From: Candidatus Poribacteria bacterium | Lineage (GTDB): Bacteria > Poribacteria > WGA-4E > WGA-3G | Direction: 5' to 3' | NCBI GenBank assembly: GCA_028820635.1 | Contig: JAPPIG010000064.1 | Span: 131,074-195,073, forward strand | Length of the DNA stretch: 64,000 nucleotides | In this document: positions 23,251 through 31,932 of the stretch, one piece after another | How positions within the stretch are numbered: position 1 is the first letter of the stretch | How the letters are laid out: every line of letters begins with the position of its first letter | Made by a program: the position numbers and the translations under genes | Notes under the pieces: model-generated | What the model was told of the DNA's origin: nothing | Databases searched by the model: none | The model's input: only the letters and a program-made list of their open reading frames with translations

Positions 23251-23574
23251 TATAAATTTGTTCTAATAGTCTGTCCAATCTAAACTTTACAGTTTTACAG
23301 TCGCGATCGGGAGGTCCTTCCTACAAAAAGGCTTGTACAGCATAGGTTCAGAACGCTCTCTGAATAATTGTTATCTACACAATTTAAGAATGAATTAGTT
23401 CATTGTAGGGTGATTCATCGTCCGTCGTAATGCGAGATGAATCAATCATCCCCAAACAAACCATAAGTTTAGACTGGACAACCGAGTTACTCTCACTCCG
23501 CGTTGGCACGAAATTTGCGAATGGCTGTAGTAGTTAGAAAGTCGATAAATAAAACCGGAAAAGGAGATAAATCA

Positions 23575-23841
23575 ATGAGCAAATCGAAAATTGACCAGAG
23601 CCATACTCGGCAAAAGAACCGGATTGATTCCTCTCATACTCGGCAAAAGAACCAGATTGATGCTTCTCATACTCGGCAAAAAGAGGGAATTAAAACCGCT
23701 GATACTGCAAGACAGCGTAATGATATCCGTAAAGCTGAAGAGAGACAGCGTAATGATATCCGTAAAGCTGAAGAGAGAGAGCGGAACGATGCCCGTAAAG
23801 CTGGGGAGAGAGAGCGGAACGATGCCCGTAAAACCGGTTGA
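23575..23841 (+). CDS. small highly basic tandem-repeat protein
   Basis: AGGAG RBS. SHTRQKNxID x3, then RNDIRKAEER x2 and RNDARKAGER x2. Encoded by 33-bp DNA tandem repeats. Confidence 0.5.
   Translation: MSKSKIDQSHTRQKNRIDSSHTRQKNQIDASHTRQKEGIKTADTARQRNDIRKAEERQRNDIRKAEERERNDARKAGERERNDARKTG
23592..23830 (+). repeat. 33-bp tandem repeats (two sub-families) inside the small basic protein gene
   Basis: CGGCAAAAGAACCGGATTGATTCCTCTCATACT x3; CGTAATGATATCCGTAAAGCTGAAGAGAGACAG x2; CGGAACGATGCCCGTAAAGCTGGGGAGAGAGAG x2. Confidence 0.7.
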
Positions 23842-24163: not shown

Positions 24164-25972
24164 TTATCCGACAATACCCATCGCTTCAAGTTCGGCAATC
24201 TGTTTCAGCCATGATTCACGAATTTCAGGGGAGTAATCACCCGGGAGTAAGGATTTGCGGGTACAATTCAAGAACGCTTGCAAGGTTTGATAACGCCGAA
24301 TTGGACCGATATTTGGTAGAATTCTATCGGATATAACGTCAACGATTTCGTCTACAGACAACTCTCCTTCGCGGTTTTTGGCAGCTTGAAGGTCAGCACG
24401 GAGTGATGCAAAACTGGCAGCCGAATACCCTTCAGTCAGCGACAGCAGGAGTTTAAATGCCTCATCCGGAATTTCGCCTCTGAAAATATTGCTAAGCGTC
24501 CAGTGTAGAAATGTCTCTCGGTCTTCACCTGTTGGATCGAGAACTGGAATTACGATGTCTCCAACTCTGCCTTCTCTGCGCAGGTCGGGCGAGAGATTAT
24601 AGATACGCGCTGTCATAAGCAGCCATGTGATATTGCCGCGTAACTGCGGGTCGGACATCATAGCCTGTATTTTTCCTGTAAGCCTGCGCTCAGTTGCGTG
24701 TGCATCTCTACCAACATCCCCGAACTGTGTATCCGCTTCGTCAACAAAAATTAACACATTCACCAATGCCATCAACAAACGTCTGAGCCGTTCAAAGATC
24801 ACATCTGTCTGTCCAAACCACATGCTGCGGATATTCTTGAGTACTAATACAGGTATATCCAATTCTCCTGCGAGTCCTTCAAAGATAAAGGTTTTTCCGC
24901 TACCGATGGGTCCGCATACACTCAATCCAGCGATGGAATCTTTTCCTGTAGATGTAATGCGAGGAATTATCTGTGTCTTCAAGAAGTCAACCAGTTTTTG
25001 ATTGCCGACAATATCTTTGAGAGAATGTGCAGGTTTTTTGAATTCGACGACATCTTCCCCCAACTGTGCTTGGATAAATTCAGATACTTTTTCTATTACG
25101 TTGTCTGGACGCAGTTTTTCTCCTGAATAACAAGCTGAGACAAGCAGCTGGCGTAAAGCTTGGATTGATAATCCCGCTGTTAACACGGCGAGTTGTGATT
25201 GGCTACCCCATAGATTTAACTCCTTTTTTGCAGGTTTTTGGGTTCTATTGAACCATGATATAAAATGTCTTCGTGCTTCTACTTGGGGAGATTGAATTTC
25301 TACATCTATGACTTGGGGCAAGCGGGTAACGCGTGAGTTTATTAGGCTTTTTGATTCGGCAATGAAAACAACCGTATCGGTAGCTTTCATGAAATCGGAA
25401 TCAGAAATCCAATCCTGCACGATGCTAACTCTATGTCTATCTGCTAAACTTAAACTTCGGATTTCTCCTTCAGGGAGTAACATATCCGTTGCTTCAATAA
25501 AAATAAGGAGTTTTTCCTGCAAAAACTTTTCTCCGCGAACATTCGTAGATCGCGAAATAAGACAGAATTGTCGCAGCAGTTCAAGTGCCAATGTCGGGCT
25601 TCCGATAGCATCGTTTAGGTATTGTTCAAACAAGTCGTTAGACGCATTTGAGGATTTACTTGTTTTGAGTTCAGGGTCTTCCGCCTTGTTCGGAAGCGCG
25701 AAAAGACTGGTAGTGTTTTTCTGTGAAGGTTCGCTCTCCCCCCGCCATAGGTTGAAAGCGTTTTTTACCTTTTCTCGGTCGCTTGCATGCAGAAAACGGA
25801 GCGGACCATTGAGTTCGTATACTATGAGGATAAAACCCGAAATATCCCAGCTTCGCGTAAGAAACGGAACGAGGGGAATGTAATCCTCCTCATCTGATTC
25901 TTCAACGAAAAAGAGGTCGTGGATATTCCCATGAAGGACGATACTGCGCGAGGTGCCAGAATTAATAAGCAA
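24164..25972 (-). CDS. classical-clade AAA ATPase with ~330-aa uncharacterised N-terminal region
   Basis: Walker A GPIGSGKT; Walker B LIFVDEAD; sensor-1/SRH TARIYNLSPDLRREGRVGD (matches TNRPDxLDPALLRPGRFD of the FtsH/Vps4/katanin clade). A single AAA module sits at the C-terminus. Confidence 0.85.
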   Translation of the reverse strand: MLINSGTSRSIVLHGNIHDLFFVEESDEEDYIPLVPFLTRSWDISGFILIVYELNGPLRFLHASDREKVKNAFNLWRGESEPSQKNTTSLFALPNKAEDPELKTSKSSNASNDLFEQYLNDAIGSPTLALELLRQFCLISRSTNVRGEKFLQEKLLIFIEATDMLLPEGEIRSLSLADRHRVSIVQDWISDSDFMKATDTVVFIAESKSLINSRVTRLPQVIDVEIQSPQVEARRHFISWFNRTQKPAKKELNLWGSQSQLAVLTAGLSIQALRQLLVSACYSGEKLRPDNVIEKVSEFIQAQLGEDVVEFKKPAHSLKDIVGNQKLVDFLKTQIIPRITSTGKDSIAGLSVCGPIGSGKTFIFEGLAGELDIPVLVLKNIRSMWFGQTDVIFERLRRLLMALVNVLIFVDEADTQFGDVGRDAHATERRLTGKIQAMMSDPQLRGNITWLLMTARIYNLSPDLRREGRVGDIVIPVLDPTGEDRETFLHWTLSNIFRGEIPDEAFKLLLSLTEGYSAASFASLRADLQAAKNREGELSVDEIVDVISDRILPNIGPIRRYQTLQAFLNCTRKSLLPGDYSPEIRESWLKQIAELEAMGIVG

Positions 25973-26059
25973 CCCAGCTTCTGTACGGAATTTGTAAGTA
26001 GGGTCTTTAACAGCGATGTTTATACCCTCCGTTCATTGACTGTGGCAAATTGACTAACA

Positions 26060-27883
26060 TTAACTTGCCTGTGCCAACTTTTTCCATCGTGGAAGAAAAC
26101 CTTCAGTCAAGAACTGGTCAAGGTTCCAGATATTCCTTTGCGGTTCTACTTCAAAAAATGTTCCCATTGCCAAAACAAGAATGTCTTTAAAACCATAATT
26201 TGTCTCAATTTGTGAGAGTGTTTCATAAGTTTGGAGAAATGCGGTGTGAATTCGGAGAAAGTTTAGCGCAGCAAAACTAAACGCATTGAGCTTCAGGCAA
26301 TCATCATTTGTTTTCTCCCAAAACCATTCCGGTTTGTAAAAAAGGTCGAGTCGTTCTTTGCAAAGCTGCACCGCTTTTTCAAGGACATCATCTAATTCTT
26401 GGCGATTCATCTCTTTATCTGGAATATCAAGTTTTTCACAAACCTCAGCATGTATTCGGTGTTTTGCTTCATCAGAATCCACCCACGTTTGAAACGCTTC
26501 AGAGGCTCGTTCGAAACAATTGCGAAGATCTGCAATTGTCAAATCAAGTTTGCTCGGAAAAGCCTTAAGTAGAGAAGAACTCGGCAAAAGATCTGCTTGC
26601 TCAGGATGTAGTTGTAAGAATTTATATTCTACGACATCTGCTAACATCTCTGCCAGAATAGGTGTAAAAGCGATGATAGATCGCTCATAAAGCTCAGCAT
26701 CAATGAATTCCGTCAGTTTTTCCGCATCAAGCTGAATTTCCCCGGTTTTCGTTTTAACAAATGCTTCGGCAAATGTAGTCTGTTCACCTAAAACTGAGGC
26801 AGATTCTGTTAAAGATAATGGTCGATTAAAGAGTGATAATTCGGTATACAGGTCCTCAAAGTCAAGCAAACTCTCTTGCCACTGGTGTCCCCATGTATCA
26901 TGAATCAGATATTTATCAAGTTCTTCCAATGGGAGAACACCAACCATTCGTGTGAGCGTAGTCGTAACCAATTCAACAGACAGTGCAGTATCTTTGGCAA
27001 TTTGTTCTCGGAACTTTAAATCTAAATTTTCTGCATTAAAAGTGCCAAAAACAGGAAAATGTGCAAACGGTTCAACCTGCCAAATTTTTCGCAAAAATTG
27101 CGCATAACTAAATTTCTTACCAGATTGTTTTTTACGGTATCTATCTGTTGCCGTGGGTATTTTTTCACTGTGTGTATTGGCAGGAGTTTCCTTTATTTTA
27201 GAAGGCAGACAGAAATAGAGAGCAGAACAGGTTTTTATCAATCGGACTTCGCCAACTTCAAAGGGCGCGTCCGGATATAAACACTGAAAGAGGTTGAGAA
27301 TGTCAGTATCCAGTTGTGGATTATCGGACACTAAATTAAAGCGATTCTGTAAACACTGCATGATTTGATGTCGGTGCATCAGAGGGGCAGTTCGAATAGC
27401 GAGGTTTCTCGTTAGTTTGTCTAATGCTTTTGAATCTACATGGAATATATCTTGGAGCAGTGCCTTCATGTCTTGCTGTTCTGATTCTTCTGTAGGGGCA
27501 TCTGCTGTAAATTGCGTAAAAATTTTAGAGCCTGCAGTGTCGAGGTTTTCAATATTGGGATGGTTGACAATTGCGGGATACTGGTCAAGGGATAACCAAA
27601 TTGCTTCGATAAAAATATTATCCAAAACACTGAATGACGTATTTATTGAATCGTTTTGTTTAGATGAATGGGATATTTTGTCTGTTTCCAATACTAACGT
27701 ATTATGCAGATCAAAAAACTTTTCAAGCGTTTCAGTTGAAACTGGACCACTCTTTTTGGTATTGTTAATTTTATTTACGTGGGTTTCAAAATCCTTTAAA
27801 CCTTCCAAGATAATTTCCCAATTGCTCGGCGTATTATCCTGATGCCACGTGTTGACGTTCACAACCCCCTCCTCTCTTTCCAC
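26060..27883 (-). CDS. hypothetical 607-aa protein, no recognisable domain, directly upstream and co-oriented with the AAA ATPase
   Basis: Long uninterrupted ORF; 87-bp gap to the AAA gene. No motifs I can assign. Confidence 0.6.
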   Translation of the reverse strand: MEREEGVVNVNTWHQDNTPSNWEIILEGLKDFETHVNKINNTKKSGPVSTETLEKFFDLHNTLVLETDKISHSSKQNDSINTSFSVLDNIFIEAIWLSLDQYPAIVNHPNIENLDTAGSKIFTQFTADAPTEESEQQDMKALLQDIFHVDSKALDKLTRNLAIRTAPLMHRHQIMQCLQNRFNLVSDNPQLDTDILNLFQCLYPDAPFEVGEVRLIKTCSALYFCLPSKIKETPANTHSEKIPTATDRYRKKQSGKKFSYAQFLRKIWQVEPFAHFPVFGTFNAENLDLKFREQIAKDTALSVELVTTTLTRMVGVLPLEELDKYLIHDTWGHQWQESLLDFEDLYTELSLFNRPLSLTESASVLGEQTTFAEAFVKTKTGEIQLDAEKLTEFIDAELYERSIIAFTPILAEMLADVVEYKFLQLHPEQADLLPSSSLLKAFPSKLDLTIADLRNCFERASEAFQTWVDSDEAKHRIHAEVCEKLDIPDKEMNRQELDDVLEKAVQLCKERLDLFYKPEWFWEKTNDDCLKLNAFSFAALNFLRIHTAFLQTYETLSQIETNYGFKDILVLAMGTFFEVEPQRNIWNLDQFLTEGFLPRWKKLAQAS

Positions 27884-28073: not shown

Positions 28074-28910
28074 TTATAACGGTAGTTCAGAATCACTCTC
28101 TTTCTTTTCTTCGGGCTCATCGGTTTTCTCAGGGGTATCTGTTTGTTGTGCTCCGAAGATTAAGGAATCAAATTCATCAGAAGCAGCGCTGGAACTTGCA
28201 GCGGCAAGAAATTCTTCCTCTTCAGAACGTGAATCAGTGCCAGCGAGTTCTTGTGCAACCGCCGATCTACCCTTTGCTTTCTCACGGATTTCTCGCATCC
28301 GTGTCAATTCCGCTGAAGTGCCATCCGTACTAATACCTGATAGCAAATCCGCGACATCTTCTTGCTCACGTGCTGTAATAAGATCGGCAACCGCTTCAGA
28401 TTGCTCAGTTTTGATCTTATCAAGATCGCGGTGGAGACCGGTAATCTGAAGTTTATGGGTTTCAATGTCTTCCTGCGCGCGTTCAATATCCTGCTCAAGT
28501 TCATCAATGCGCGCGTTTTTCTCATCCAGAGTGGAGTGAAAATCGTTATAAGAGGTAACACATCGGACGTAGTCAGGATGCTGTTTTATCTCCTCATCTG
28601 GTGTGCCAGCTTTTTGAAGGTCAGCGGCAGTGCTTTTTGCCTTAGCGATTGCACCTGCCTTCATCTTTTCAAGTTTGTCAATGTCATCTGTCAGAGCCTT
28701 CAGTGAATTCTTCTTATTTTCAACAAGTGCGATGAGTTGCCCAATCGCATTCTTGTAACGTTGGATATTTCCCTGTTTGTCACGGATAATGTCCTCATAA
28801 GCACCGCGAACCGCTTCAGGGTTTTCCATTAGTTTATCAGCCTGCTCGTGTGCACGACCAGTAAGTGTATACCAAATTGCTTTGAAAAAACGGGTGAAGC
28901 CGTTTGCCAT
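28074..28910 (-). CDS. PspA/IM30 (Vipp1/LiaH) family protein, copy 1
   Basis: N-terminus MANGFTRFFKAIWYTLTGRAHEQADKLMENPEAVRGAYEDIIRDKQG fits the PspA helix a0/a1. Coiled-coil throughout; acidic E/S-rich C-terminal tail. Confidence 0.75.
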   Translation of the reverse strand: MANGFTRFFKAIWYTLTGRAHEQADKLMENPEAVRGAYEDIIRDKQGNIQRYKNAIGQLIALVENKKNSLKALTDDIDKLEKMKAGAIAKAKSTAADLQKAGTPDEEIKQHPDYVRCVTSYNDFHSTLDEKNARIDELEQDIERAQEDIETHKLQITGLHRDLDKIKTEQSEAVADLITAREQEDVADLLSGISTDGTSAELTRMREIREKAKGRSAVAQELAGTDSRSEEEEFLAAASSSAASDEFDSLIFGAQQTDTPEKTDEPEEKKESDSELPL

Positions 28911-28959: not shown

Positions 28960-29649
28960 TTAAGTATCATCCTCTCTGATACCTGATAACAGATCATCAA
29001 CCTCTTGTTGTGTGCGTGCGGCAATAAGATCGGCAACCGCTTCAGATTGCTCCGTCTTAACCTTCTCCAGATCACGATGGAGACTGGTTATCTGAAGTTT
29101 ATGGGTTTCAATGTCTTGTTGCGCGCGTTCAATATCTTGCTCAAGTTTAGCGATGCGGGCGTTTTTCTGCTCCAAAGTGGAGTGGAAATCGTTGTAAGAT
29201 GCAACACATCGGACATAACTTGGGTGCTGTTCAATCTCCTCGTCAGAAGTTCCTTCTTTTTTAAGTTCAGTGATAATACCTTCCTTCTTCTCGATTGCAT
29301 CAGCCTTCATCTTTTCAAGTTTGTCAATATCATCTGTCAAACTCTTCAGCGAATTTTTCTTATTTTCAACAAGTGCGATGAGTTGCCCAATCGCATTCTT
29401 GTAACGTTGGATATTTCCCTGCTTGTCACGAATGATGTCTTCATAAGCACCACGTACCGCTTCAGGGCTTTCAATGAGGCTATCGGTCTGTTTATCGTAT
29501 TGGATATTTTCTTGCGTGTCACTTATATCGTCTTCAGAAGGCTCGTATATCGGTTCAGAGCTTTCCTTGAGTCTATCTGCTTGTTCAAGTGCACGACCAA
29601 TTTGCGTATACCAGACAGCCTTGTATAAACGGATGAAGCCATTTTCCAT
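28960..29649 (-). CDS. PspA/IM30 family protein, copy 2
   Basis: Near-identical core to copy 1 (ESPEAVRGAYEDIIRDKQGNIQRYKNAIGQLIALVENKKNSLK), with a ~30-aa insertion near the N-terminus. Confidence 0.75.
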   Translation of the reverse strand: MENGFIRLYKAVWYTQIGRALEQADRLKESSEPIYEPSEDDISDTQENIQYDKQTDSLIESPEAVRGAYEDIIRDKQGNIQRYKNAIGQLIALVENKKNSLKSLTDDIDKLEKMKADAIEKKEGIITELKKEGTSDEEIEQHPSYVRCVASYNDFHSTLEQKNARIAKLEQDIERAQQDIETHKLQITSLHRDLEKVKTEQSEAVADLIAARTQQEVDDLLSGIREDDT

Positions 29650-29733: not shown

Positions 29734-30309
29734 TTATCCATTATGAGTAGATGAAAATGCTGACTTCAGTTTTGGCATAAAATGCGTAAAAAATTTGACT
29801 GCTTGTTCATCTTGATGGTTAGGTGAAAATTTGTGTCTTCCCATACATCTTCTTGTATATGAGAGCGAAAGATATCCACAAGTTTGTGAACCAATTGCCA
29901 TCATACCACCAATCGCAACAAGTCCAAAACCGTATATGCCCGAAATAGCAATAACTCCCCAAGCTTGTGTGCCACCGATAGCAATAACTCCCCATGAAAT
30001 TCCACCTCCGATGGCAATTACCCCAATTGACATTAAACCACCGATAGCAATAAAACCGCAAGCAAGCCCACCACCAATAGCAATAGCTCCATTTGCGAAA
30101 AGTCCCGCAATGACAATCTCTCCAGTAGAAACAAAGTCTGAAACCATGTCTGGCGAGGCAATTGAAGATTCAAACAATCGCACCATCTTATCCAGATTTA
30201 ATGCGAGAATAAAACACAGTGAAACGGCCCAAAAAATACCCCACTTCCAATAATAAGATCGAAATGCTTTTTTGAATTTTTCAGGTACAAAAGCTTCAGT
30301 CATTTTCAC
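29734..30309 (-). CDS. membrane protein with six tandem 11-aa GxIAIGG (glycine-zipper-like) repeats
   Basis: TM helix followed by GAIAIGGGLAC-GFIAIGGLMSI-GVIAIGGGISW-GVIAIGGTQAW-GVIAISGIYGF-GLVAIGGMMAIG. Underlying DNA has 33-bp periodicity. Sits between pspA copies. Confidence 0.6.
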   Translation of the reverse strand: MKMTEAFVPEKFKKAFRSYYWKWGIFWAVSLCFILALNLDKMVRLFESSIASPDMVSDFVSTGEIVIAGLFANGAIAIGGGLACGFIAIGGLMSIGVIAIGGGISWGVIAIGGTQAWGVIAISGIYGFGLVAIGGMMAIGSQTCGYLSLSYTRRCMGRHKFSPNHQDEQAVKFFTHFMPKLKSAFSSTHNG

Positions 30310-30469: not shown

Positions 30470-31085
30470 TTTGATTCTTCATTAACATCTTCAGTCTCTT
30501 TCTGCCGAATTTCTTCTTGTATCTTTGTCAATTCCATTGAAATATCATTCTTACTAATACCTGATACCGTATCACTGATTTCCTTTGTTCACGTGCAGCG
30601 ATCATATCAGCAACCGCGTCAGATTACTGTGTCTTGAGCTTATCCAATTCACGATGGAGAGTGGTTATCTGAAGTTTATGGGTTTCAATGTCTTCTTGCG
30701 CGCGTTCAATATCCTGTTCAAGTTTAGCTACACGAGCATTTTTCTCTTCCAATGTGGTGTGGTAATCATTATAAGAAGTAATATGTCGGACATAGTCTGG
30801 ATGCTGTTTGATTTCCTCAGCTGATGCACCTGAATCTCGTAGTTCAGCGGCTGTGTTTTTCGACTTTGTGATGGCACCTGCCTTCATCTTTTCAAGTTTG
30901 TCAATGTCATCTGTGAGACCCTTCAGAGAATTTTTCTTGTTTTCTATAAGCGCGATCGACTGCCCGATCACATTTTTGTAACGTTGGATATCTTCCCGTT
31001 TAACGCGGATTTTGAAATAACGAGCAATACTGTTTGCCATTGGAAAATCTCCTGAGAGTGAGATAAAATTTGCTACAATTAACAA
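30470..31085 (-). pseudogene. decaying third PspA/IM30 paralog
   Basis: The N-terminus lacks the conserved EQADKL...AVRGAYEDII block. In-frame CAA>TAA nonsense at ~30624, followed by a frameshifted C-terminal tail that is still DNA-homologous to copies 1 and 2. Confidence 0.55.
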
Positions 31086-31086
31086 G

Positions 31087-31932
31087 TTATTGAAGTTTAC
31101 CTTCTTCTGTAGGTTCTACTTTCGGGTGTGTCGTTATAGCATGGGTGTCTTCTAATGAATTGCTCGTTTGCCCTATCTCTTTATCAATATTTGGGGTAAA
31201 TTCTCTTATCTGTTCATCAACTTTCTTCGCAAAAGCAAGGCTTTCGTCAAGTTCCGTGCGAAGTCGTGAGAGTTCAGTCTCATTACTTTCAGGACTAAGC
31301 GTCAGCACACGAGCATAAAGATGTGAAAGTTGAACAATTGTTTGTTGAACATCTGCTATTTGTTGTTCTCTATGTTCCTTTAGAACTCTTTTAACAGTTG
31401 CCAATTGAGAATCTCTTGATTTCTCGTGCATCTTCAACGTGTCTTTCAAACACTGAACAGCTTGTGTAAAGAGTTCGGTCACTTTACCAGTAATTTCTGC
31501 ACTTACCGTAATAGGGAGGGTCGCCATCCAACCAGCGTCTCGCGCTTCCTCCTGAAAAGATTGATGCAAGGCGCGAAGTTCCTCCAGCATCTGCTCTGTT
31601 CTTTTGTCGCCATCCTTTTTTAACTGTTCATGCAACGCGTTCAGTTCTTGTTCCTGTTTCTGTTGTGCTTCATAGAGTATTTCTTCATGAACGCGTTTTG
31701 CGATGTCGTCCGTGCCGGTTGTCCACTTTGTAATCAGCGCACCAATAGGAAGACCGATACCGATAACCGCGCTTGCGAATAAGTAAAGAATCTTTGGTTC
31801 TAAATTAAACACCCATGACGCGAAAACGCCAAGCGCACCCGCCGCAAATGGATAAATGACGTAAGGGTTACTAATGAGATGGAGTAAGAATTTCTCTCGA
31901 AACAATTTCCTATCAATCAACGTTTTCCCCAA
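31087..31932 (-). CDS. two-TM membrane-anchored coiled-coil protein, first gene of the pspA cluster
   Basis: Hydrophobic segments at ~res 20-43 and 48-68, then a long heptad-rich coiled coil (EEILYEAQQKQEQELNALHEQLKK...). Only a 1-nt gap to the pspA3 remnant. Confidence 0.6.
   Translation of the reverse strand: MGKTLIDRKLFREKFLLHLISNPYVIYPFAAGALGVFASWVFNLEPKILYLFASAVIGIGLPIGALITKWTTGTDDIAKRVHEEILYEAQQKQEQELNALHEQLKKDGDKRTEQMLEELRALHQSFQEEARDAGWMATLPITVSAEITGKVTELFTQAVQCLKDTLKMHEKSRDSQLATVKRVLKEHREQQIADVQQTIVQLSHLYARVLTLSPESNETELSRLRTELDESLAFAKKVDEQIREFTPNIDKEIGQTSNSLEDTHAITTHPKVEPTEEGKLQ

Follow-up and report, generated by a model that had tools for sequence, protein, structure and literature searches.

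We analyzed a 64,000-nucleotide stretch of DNA (hereafter, the window) from a Candidatus Poribacteria bacterium (assembly GCA_028820635.1, contig JAPPIG010000064.1), in which an ATPase gene of the AAA family occupies positions 24164–25972 of the minus strand, encoding 602 amino acids from a TTG start and ending with a stop codon at 24164–24166. This gene is the last of seven co-directional genes, which run from 31932 down to 24164 on the minus strand and include a gene for a PspA/Vipp1-like protein of the ESCRT-III superfamily. The original prediction, made from the sequence of the window, described the ATPase as a single C-terminal classical-clade AAA module behind a novel substrate-recognition N-domain (residues 1–330), and it hinted at a connection with PspA. 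We found that the protein is a tandem of two AAA modules, i.e., a degenerate D1 and a D2 with its catalytic motifs in place, and that a PspA gene lies upstream of it across several phyla. Window coordinates given below are on the minus strand unless marked (+).

Two AAA modules in the ATPase

A family alignment of 58 diverse ATPase members was built, to which the residue counts below refer, and the profile of the N-terminal half was compared with that of the C-terminal half using hhalign. The two halves matched with a probability of 97.1% (E = 6.6e-11; 231 columns), and the register of the match brought their strands, Walker B strand included, and their lids into superposition. D1 (residues 1–317; 25022–25972) is a degenerate, nucleotide-free AAA module according to this comparison, the motif counts, the structural model and Foldseek. 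A GxxxxGK[ST] motif was present in the N-terminal half of 0/58 members; in the hhalign register, the P-loop equivalent corresponded to about residues 52–66, YELNGPLRFLHASDR, and the Walker B "DE" was replaced by E160/A161 in the window copy and was variable across the family. D1 also contained an extra conserved N-terminal beta motif, G15-N16-x-x-D19-L-F (element at residues 12–21), and a variable disordered insert at residues 77–113.

The AlphaFold2 model of the ATPase (predicted local distance difference test (pLDDT), 92.2; predicted template modelling score (pTM), 0.87) placed the first strand of D1 at about residue 10 when counted from the TTG start, or at about residue 25 with the extended start described below. 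When the whole model was compared with the PDB using Foldseek, the top matches were the D1–D2 tandems p97, Cdc48, Rix7, Drg1/AFG2 and MSMEG_0858. These alignments spanned approximately 600–640 columns; therefore, both halves were covered, and, by its sequence and predicted structure, the ATPase is a type II AAA protein in which D1 is inactive, D2 is active and a separate N-domain is missing. The N-terminal region is itself a degenerate AAA module homologous to the C-terminal one. That is, the original prediction was mistaken in counting a single AAA module and in reading residues 1–330 as a novel domain for substrate recognition; the region was also not a known protease or transport adaptor. 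D1, in which nucleotide binding has been lost, probably serves as a structural or docking ring.

D2 (residues 318–552; 24317–25021) comprises the active classical-clade AAA module and a four-helix lid, as identified by PF00004 and profile matches; Pfam PF00004 matched the window ATPase with E = 8.8e-14 and matched all 58 members scanned. In Walker A, GPIGSGKT (residues 354–361; 24890–24913), G354, G359 and K360 were each present in 58/58 members. Pore loop 1, M-W-F-G (residues 384–387; 24812–24823), follows the aromatic-hydrophobic-Gly pattern: position 385 was W in 32 members and Y in 14, position 386 was F in 30 and Y in 15, and G387 was retained in 55/58. HMMER lined up this loop with the 'MWFGESE' loop of Cdc48 D2, in which MWFG is identical. 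Walker B, IFVDEAD (residues 408–414; 24731–24751), was conserved at D411 (53/58), E412 (56/58) and A413 (58/58). The sensor-1 and second region of homology (SRH), TARIYNLSPDLRREGR (residues 454–469; 24566–24613), was aligned to 'ATNRIDAIDPALRRPGR' of VAT and contains the arginine pair R466/R469 within REGR (the RxxGR pattern; residues 466–469). T454, R456 and R469 were found in 54, 57 and 56 of the 58 members, respectively, and R466 in 40, the distant branch being gapped at this position. Thus, the Walker A, Walker B and RxxGR motifs noticed earlier in this reading frame are real, with K360, E412 and R469 kept at the frequencies given above.

The canonical sensor-1 Asn position (residue 455; 24608–24610), which T454 precedes, was Ala in the window and Ala/Ser across the family. 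At the sensor-2 position (residue 519; 24416–24418), the window copy had Ala. The lid was all-helical in the model (residues 482–548), and its YSAASF aligned with FSGADL of Cdc48, i.e., a GAD-type motif, with no sensor-2 arginine in the window copy. Arg occupied the sensor-2 position in 14/58 members, which belong to the distant branch; this is unusual for the classical clade.

Past the lid lies a conserved C-terminal extension of approximately 50 residues (residues 553–602; 24167–24316), for which the model showed two helices (residues 556–569 and 582–597). Its motif, I-x3-R-R-Y-Q-T-L-Q-A-x-L-N-C-T-x3-L-L-P, was better conserved than much of the core (R559 in 54/58, Q562 in 58/58, A566 in 57/58, C570 in 52/58 and P577 in 56/58), and the extension might act between subunits or in nucleotide sensing. 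At its C-terminus (…EAMGIVG), the ATPase had neither an HbYX nor a GQYL-type docking motif, and the last residues were variable among the 58 members. Judging from its motifs, D2 would be an ATP-driven motor with an intact threading pore loop.

Clade placement was based on the scores of a D2 profile against PDB sequences and a panel of E. coli AAA+ proteins. Its top matches were VAT, Cdc48, p97, AFG2 and Msp1, with 96 bits for VAT D1, 92.7 bits for Msp1 and 84 bits for VAT D2. E. coli FtsH scored 66 bits over its full length, compared with 13 bits or less, in the P-loop only, for ClpX, ClpA, ClpB, HslU and Lon; E. coli PspF scored -0.8 bits. The best PDB sequence matches of the ATPase were Cdc48, VAT and p97, and its NCBIfam matches were weak and all to classical-clade families (CDC48, CdvC, PAN and FtsH). 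The window copy combined the PF00004 match with Walker A and B motifs, the RxxGR pair and the absence of a sensor-2 arginine. The assignment to the classical clade in the original prediction therefore holds, given PF00004 in every member and the FtsH score relative to non-classical AAA+ proteins; by its profile scores, D2 is a classical-clade module that is closest to Cdc48-type modules and is not of the Vps4 family.

Several identities were considered and rejected. A Vps4 orthologue was rejected because the ATPase has two AAA modules, no MIT domain (0/58 members; the N-terminus runs straight into D1), no Vps4_C match (PF09336; none among the 58 members) and no beta-domain in the lid of the model. 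An FtsH-like protease was rejected because no hydrophobic or transmembrane (TM) segment was found in the ATPase, PF01434 did not match and the NCBIfam FtsH score was 19 bits against a cut-off of 1008. A regulator similar to PspF was rejected on the PspF score given above and the lack of a match to PF00158 (Sigma54_activat) or to a helix-turn-helix (HTH) domain, and a proteasome-docking Cdc48 was rejected on the lack of an HbYX motif. For an N-terminal double-psi barrel/beta-clam domain, there was no Pfam match and no room before D1.

The ATPase gene probably starts upstream of the TTG codon. A probable N-terminal extension of 15 codons (25973–26017) begins with a non-canonical ATC at 26017–26015, which follows a Shine–Dalgarno sequence, GGAGG (26026–26030), by 8 nt; an in-frame TGA lies farther upstream (26033–26035). 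The extension peptide, IAVKDPTYKFRTEAG, was kept as protein in 9/9 Poribacteria loci compared, the DNA changes being synonymous, and the codon equivalent to the ATC was ATG in one locus (L022) and ATA, ATT or ATC in the other eight. Two homologues of 617 amino acids (P0015 and P0016) started with MAVKDPTYKF. Because the 15 codons are conserved with synonymous changes, follow GGAGG and have ATG in L022, the comparison of these loci indicates that the true start is probably the ATC, with a product of 617 amino acids; i.e., the Poribacteria start of this gene appears to be mis-called owing to its non-canonical start codon. The length of the ATPase in public annotations ranged from 602 to 646 amino acids. 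A protein 100% identical to the window ATPase (P0001), from a Poribacteria metagenome-assembled genome (MAG), is named "ATP-binding protein [Candidatus Poribacteria bacterium]", and the names of cluster members were generic only, e.g., "SpoVK/Ycf46/Vps4 family"; the annotations "ATP-binding protein" and "hypothetical protein" could be upgraded.

An exhaustive search returned 231 representative clusters at E <= 1e-30, and full-length homologues covered both halves of the ATPase down to approximately 28% identity. Scanning of 185,579 species genomes with a profile of 15 closer sequences yielded 445 relatives, and 80 loci were kept. Most of these loci were from Poribacteria; the others were from MAGs labelled CSSED10-310, Hydrogenedentota, Verrucomicrobiota, Deltaproteobacteria, Sumerlaeota, Nitrospiraceae and Gemmataceae, and one was labelled Bathyarchaeia. 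Coatesbacteria, Chloroflexota, Acidobacteriota and the cultured Pontibacter sp. G13 (homologue P0354) were reached by a further profile search, which returned no Clostridium or Handelsmanbacteria names and gave a sharp family boundary, with at least 368 bits inside and at most 84 bits outside. The locus binned as 'Candidatus Bathyarchaeia archaeon' (L080; DATKVG010000055.1) contained a complete bacterial-type operon with an ATPase identity of 54%, reflecting either mis-binning or a transfer from bacteria to archaea.

The PspA partner and the gene neighborhood

The main PspA/Vipp1-like protein of the window (278 amino acids; 28074–28910) was assigned to the ESCRT-III superfamily by PF04012, its profile and its fold. 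PF04012 scored 34.3 bits against a gathering threshold of 33.9 and matched 9/14 orthologues, and close relatives were named "phage shock protein A" by the Joint Genome Institute (JGI). In the PDB, the top matches of the family profile were Vipp1/PspA. The AlphaFold model consisted of alpha0, a long confident hairpin and then alpha4 and alpha5, and the best five Foldseek matches of this model were Vipp1/PspA cryo-electron microscopy structures. On the evidence of sequence profile and predicted fold, the partner is a real PspA/ESCRT-III superfamily protein. The subfamily profile did not detect E. coli PspA (L088; -3.6 bits), and cyanobacterial Vipp1/PspA structures came first in the PDB. To judge from its profile matches, the partner is a divergent, Vipp1-leaning branch of PspA.

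The PspA protein ends in an acidic/polar linker (residues 253–278; 28077–28154) that is predicted to be disordered (pLDDT <50) and that closes with a conserved tag, SELPL-COOH (28077–28091). An LP motif stood at the C-terminus, or within 5 residues of it, in the 78 orthologues read from the loci. All 120 of the 120 Poribacteria PspA clusters (P0367–P0486) ended with SELP[LVI], and six PspA loci from other phyla ended with xLPE. L276 and P277 were invariant in a cross-phylum alignment of 14 orthologues, in which ELAGTD and EFDxLI motifs were also conserved; the last 26 residues or so were variable apart from the terminal tag. The extra PspA paralogues described below had no C-terminal tag. This conserved C-terminal tag of the ATPase-linked PspA is newly described here, and its conservation makes it a candidate recognition handle for the ATPase.

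In 74/80 loci, the strand of the ATPase gene also carried a PspA orthologue upstream of it, and the six exceptions had less than 2.4 kb of upstream flank. The PspA connection hinted at in the original prediction was thus borne out wherever flank was available. The linkage spanned Poribacteria and the CSSED10-310, Verrucomicrobiota, Deltaproteobacteria, Nitrospiraceae and Gemmataceae MAGs. In approximately half of the Poribacteria loci (L023–L054 and others), the PspA gene was immediately upstream of the ATPase gene; therefore, the dyad of PspA and ATPase is the core of the system.

The remaining genes of the window cluster surround this dyad. The first gene encodes a membrane-anchored coiled-coil protein of 281 amino acids (31087–31932) with a hydrophobic segment at residues 47–69. 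Homologues were present in L072 (3236–4015), L076 (4373–5134), L079 (3499–4248), L080 (3208–4008), L075 and Poribacteria, i.e., this protein is conserved together with PspA and the ATPase across phyla. Neither PspA nor Snf7 similarity was detected in it by hhalign (0.7% against PspA), Pfam or a PDB profile search, and the published 'TM+Snf7' label for the membrane partner was unsupported by the same three methods. Two further PspA paralogues lie in the cluster: one of 229 amino acids (28960–29649), with 80% DNA identity to the main copy, and one of 153 amino acids (30624–31085), which is shortened at both ends and has 69% DNA identity to the main copy. Poribacteria loci contained one to four PspA paralogues. 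Between these two paralogues, a Gly-rich multi-TM protein of 191 amino acids (29734–30309) contains five 33-nt repeats (11 amino acids, 'GG..IGVIAI'-like); it is an accessory gene that was rare in related loci.

Directly upstream of the ATPase gene, a soluble orphan protein of 607 amino acids is encoded (26060–27883), which had no Pfam, NCBIfam or PADLOC match. It was found in some Poribacteria only, its gene in every case separating those of PspA and the ATPase; at this position, other phyla carry genes for a binding protein, a permease and an ABC ATPase. The orphan might serve as an adaptor specific to its lineage. The operon of other phyla consisted of genes for a VWA protein, a TM+NMT1-like+OmpA protein, the TM coiled-coil protein, PspA, a 358-amino-acid protein without a Pfam match, an ABC permease, an ABC ATPase and the tandem AAA ATPase. 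The association with ABC, PspA, VWA and OmpA genes persisted at approximately 28% ATPase identity. The window cluster contained no ABC, VWA or OmpA gene. A known defence system was considered for the cluster and rejected, as PADLOC returned P-loop and coiled-coil noise only. A short distance downstream of the ATPase gene, a highly charged open reading frame (ORF) of 112 amino acids (23503–23841 (+)) contains two arrays of tandem 33-nt repeats (23590–23832 (+)). No homologue of this ORF was present in the related loci, and it is unlikely to be a gene.

Proposed function and alternative readings

We propose that the ATPase takes PspA polymers apart as an ATP-driven unfoldase, in a Vps4-like manner, a reading to which we assign a probability of about 0.5. 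The ATPase would assemble as a double-ring hexamer, in which the nucleotide-free D1 ring would be used for assembly or docking. The hexamer may engage the flexible C-terminal tail of PspA, possibly via the terminal LP-x tag, and the D2 motor would then thread the substrate and pull PspA subunits out of membrane polymers, resulting in their disassembly or recycling. Vps4 does the same job for ESCRT-III in archaea and eukaryotes.

Several observations weigh against this proposal. Neither an MIT domain nor another recognized ESCRT-III-binding module was found by Pfam among the 58 members, and the replacement of the sensor-1 Asn by Ala/Ser might lower hydrolysis. The tag has limits: in L082, the most distant locus examined, the LP is subterminal (the protein ends with ...ELPDTDTQM), and therefore the tag may be subfamily-specific; the protein encoded upstream in L081, a putative PspA, ends differently. 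In other phyla, ABC-transporter genes immediately precede the ATPase gene, VWA and OmpA genes lie nearby, and the other products of the operon could be clients of the ATPase. E. coli PspA regulates the AAA+ protein PspF and is not remodelled by it (PMC7619361). Finally, biochemical or genetic evidence for the PspA–AAA pairing was not found in the literature.

Alternatively, the ATPase might be an unfoldase or extractase for another operon product, with PspA only a membrane-stress scaffold or recruiting adaptor. The candidate clients would be the membrane-anchored coiled-coil protein, extracted in the manner of Msp1 or FtsH, or an envelope complex of VWA, OmpA and ABC-transporter proteins. The TM coiled-coil protein does co-occur across phyla, the D2 profile gave Msp1 one of its best single-module scores (92.7 bits), and outside Poribacteria the genes for the ABC permease and ABC ATPase immediately precede that of the tandem AAA ATPase, with VWA/OmpA genes nearby. 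However, in the approximately half of the Poribacteria loci in which PspA adjoins the ATPase gene, the 607-amino-acid and coiled-coil proteins were not found in the flanks (ABC genes were not searched there), the window cluster itself lacks the envelope-complex genes and the ATPase has no TM segment; we consider this reading unlikely. It is still less probable, in our estimation, that PspA is a regulator of the ATPase instead of its substrate, such that membrane stress would free PspA and thereby turn on the ATPase, which would act on other clients. The strict linkage of the PspA gene would suit such a role, for which PspA binding to and inhibiting an AAA+ domain provides a precedent (PMC7619361; PMC8281802). 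However, the ATPase is unrelated to the class of PspF and bacterial enhancer-binding proteins (bEBPs), as the PspF score and the missing Sigma54_activat and HTH matches indicate; its threading pore loop is typical of unfoldases, and the PspA tail, being disordered and tagged, resembles a handle for engagement.

The ATPase might also work with a protease as its unfoldase, as in Cdc48–20S, Mpa/ARC or FtsH, feeding PspA or damaged membrane proteins to degradation. In favor of this, the closest structures of the ATPase are Cdc48, VAT and p97, and AAA+ proteases commonly use C-terminal tags as degrons. Pfam and NCBIfam searches revealed no protease domain in the ATPase and no protease gene in the window cluster; moreover, the ATPase C-terminus, variable in its last residues, carries neither an HbYX nor a GQYL-type motif, and the TM and M41 domains of FtsH are lacking. 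A role of this kind seems very improbable.

Extending the proposed disassembly of PspA polymers beyond the window, many bacterial phyla might own an ATP-powered, ESCRT-III-like machine, in which a Cdc48-derived tandem AAA protein recognizes the LP-x tag of a dedicated PspA/Vipp1 paralogue and strips its subunits from polymers on the membrane, having arisen independently of archaeal Vps4 and in parallel with it; we put this forward as a tentative, somewhat doubtful generalization. Archaeal Vps4 has also been proposed to derive from Cdc48. If true, the generalization would overturn statements confining Vps4-like ESCRT-III control to archaea and eukaryotes. The tandem AAA family, with its predicted threading motor and its tight genetic linkage to a PspA paralogue, is the most concrete candidate for an energy source, if there is one, in the remodelling or recycling of bacterial PspA/Vipp1 polymers. 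The link with ABC importers and OmpA/VWA envelope proteins suggests that the system may be coupled to osmotic or envelope stress. E412, W385/F386, the dead D1 ring, the invariant Q562 of the C-terminal extension, the PspA tail tag and the corrected gene start offer experimental handles. Should our reading be wrong, the system would still be an uncharacterized, widely distributed envelope-stress module.

Comparison with known systems

An "Inactive-Classical-AAA+Classical-AAA" protein beside PspA has been described computationally by Ravi et al. (2024, mSystems, PMC11237479), with AEY64320.1 adjoining the PspA AEY64321.1 and the operon of OGG56892.1 as examples, and the PspA and AAA dyad was predicted to function in ATP-dependent membrane remodelling (PMC11237479). 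Our family resembles this dyad, matched by description only, in its dead N-terminal AAA module, its active classical AAA module and its adjacency to PspA; the operons outside Poribacteria also resemble it in the binding protein with OmpA, the ABC permease/ATPase and the TM coiled-coil protein. The window operon differs in having no ABC, OmpA or VWA genes and has two extra PspA paralogues, the Gly-rich TM protein and the 607-amino-acid orphan instead. That is, the window gene is a Poribacteria member of a family that has been known computationally since 2024 and is experimentally uncharacterized. Our literature search on experimental PspA–AAA work, on Ycf46–Vipp1 links and on Poribacteria PspA found nothing relevant.

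Reviews have stated that Vps4-like ATPases are absent from bacteria (PMC7619361; PMC10936438), and Liu et al. (2021) explicitly left open whether an equivalent ATPase exists. The gene for a classical-clade AAA motor adjoins one of the ESCRT-III superfamily, as in the Vps4/CdvC systems; the C-terminal region of the partner is flexible and carries a short conserved motif, positionally analogous to the MIT-interacting motif (MIM), and polymer disassembly is the proposed job. Unlike Vps4/CdvC, the window ATPase lacks MIT, Vps4_C and the lid beta-domain and contains two AAA modules, not one. It resembles Vps4 in its proposed function only and is not a member of that family.

The best structural and profile matches, i.e., Cdc48/p97/VAT, Rix7/NVL, Drg1/AFG2 and MSMEG_0858, share the D1–D2 tandem. 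Compared with Cdc48/p97/VAT, the window ATPase has no double-psi-barrel/beta-clam domain, D1 starting within approximately the first 25 residues; none of the nucleotide-binding motifs remains in its D1, and it has a distinctive conserved C-terminal extension. Pex1/Pex6 are also type II classical AAA proteins, in which a catalytically degenerate D1 is largely a structural ring and D2 is the motor; the likeness is one of layout only, as Pex1/Pex6 have N-terminal domains, form heterohexamers and act on peroxisomal import receptors.

The archaeal 'Halo_adaptin' system (Makarova et al. 2024, PMC10936438) comprises a Vps4-like ATPase without MIT beside a PspA-like gene. The resemblance lies in an MIT-less AAA ATPase encoded downstream of a PspA-like relative of ESCRT-III. 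A ProX-type solute-binding protein is also encoded in related loci of archaea (PMC10936438), a parallel to the genes for binding proteins and ABC transporters in the bacterial operons. However, the Halo_adaptin ATPase combines a VAT-N-like substrate-recognition domain with a single AAA module, whereas the window ATPase has a dead AAA module.

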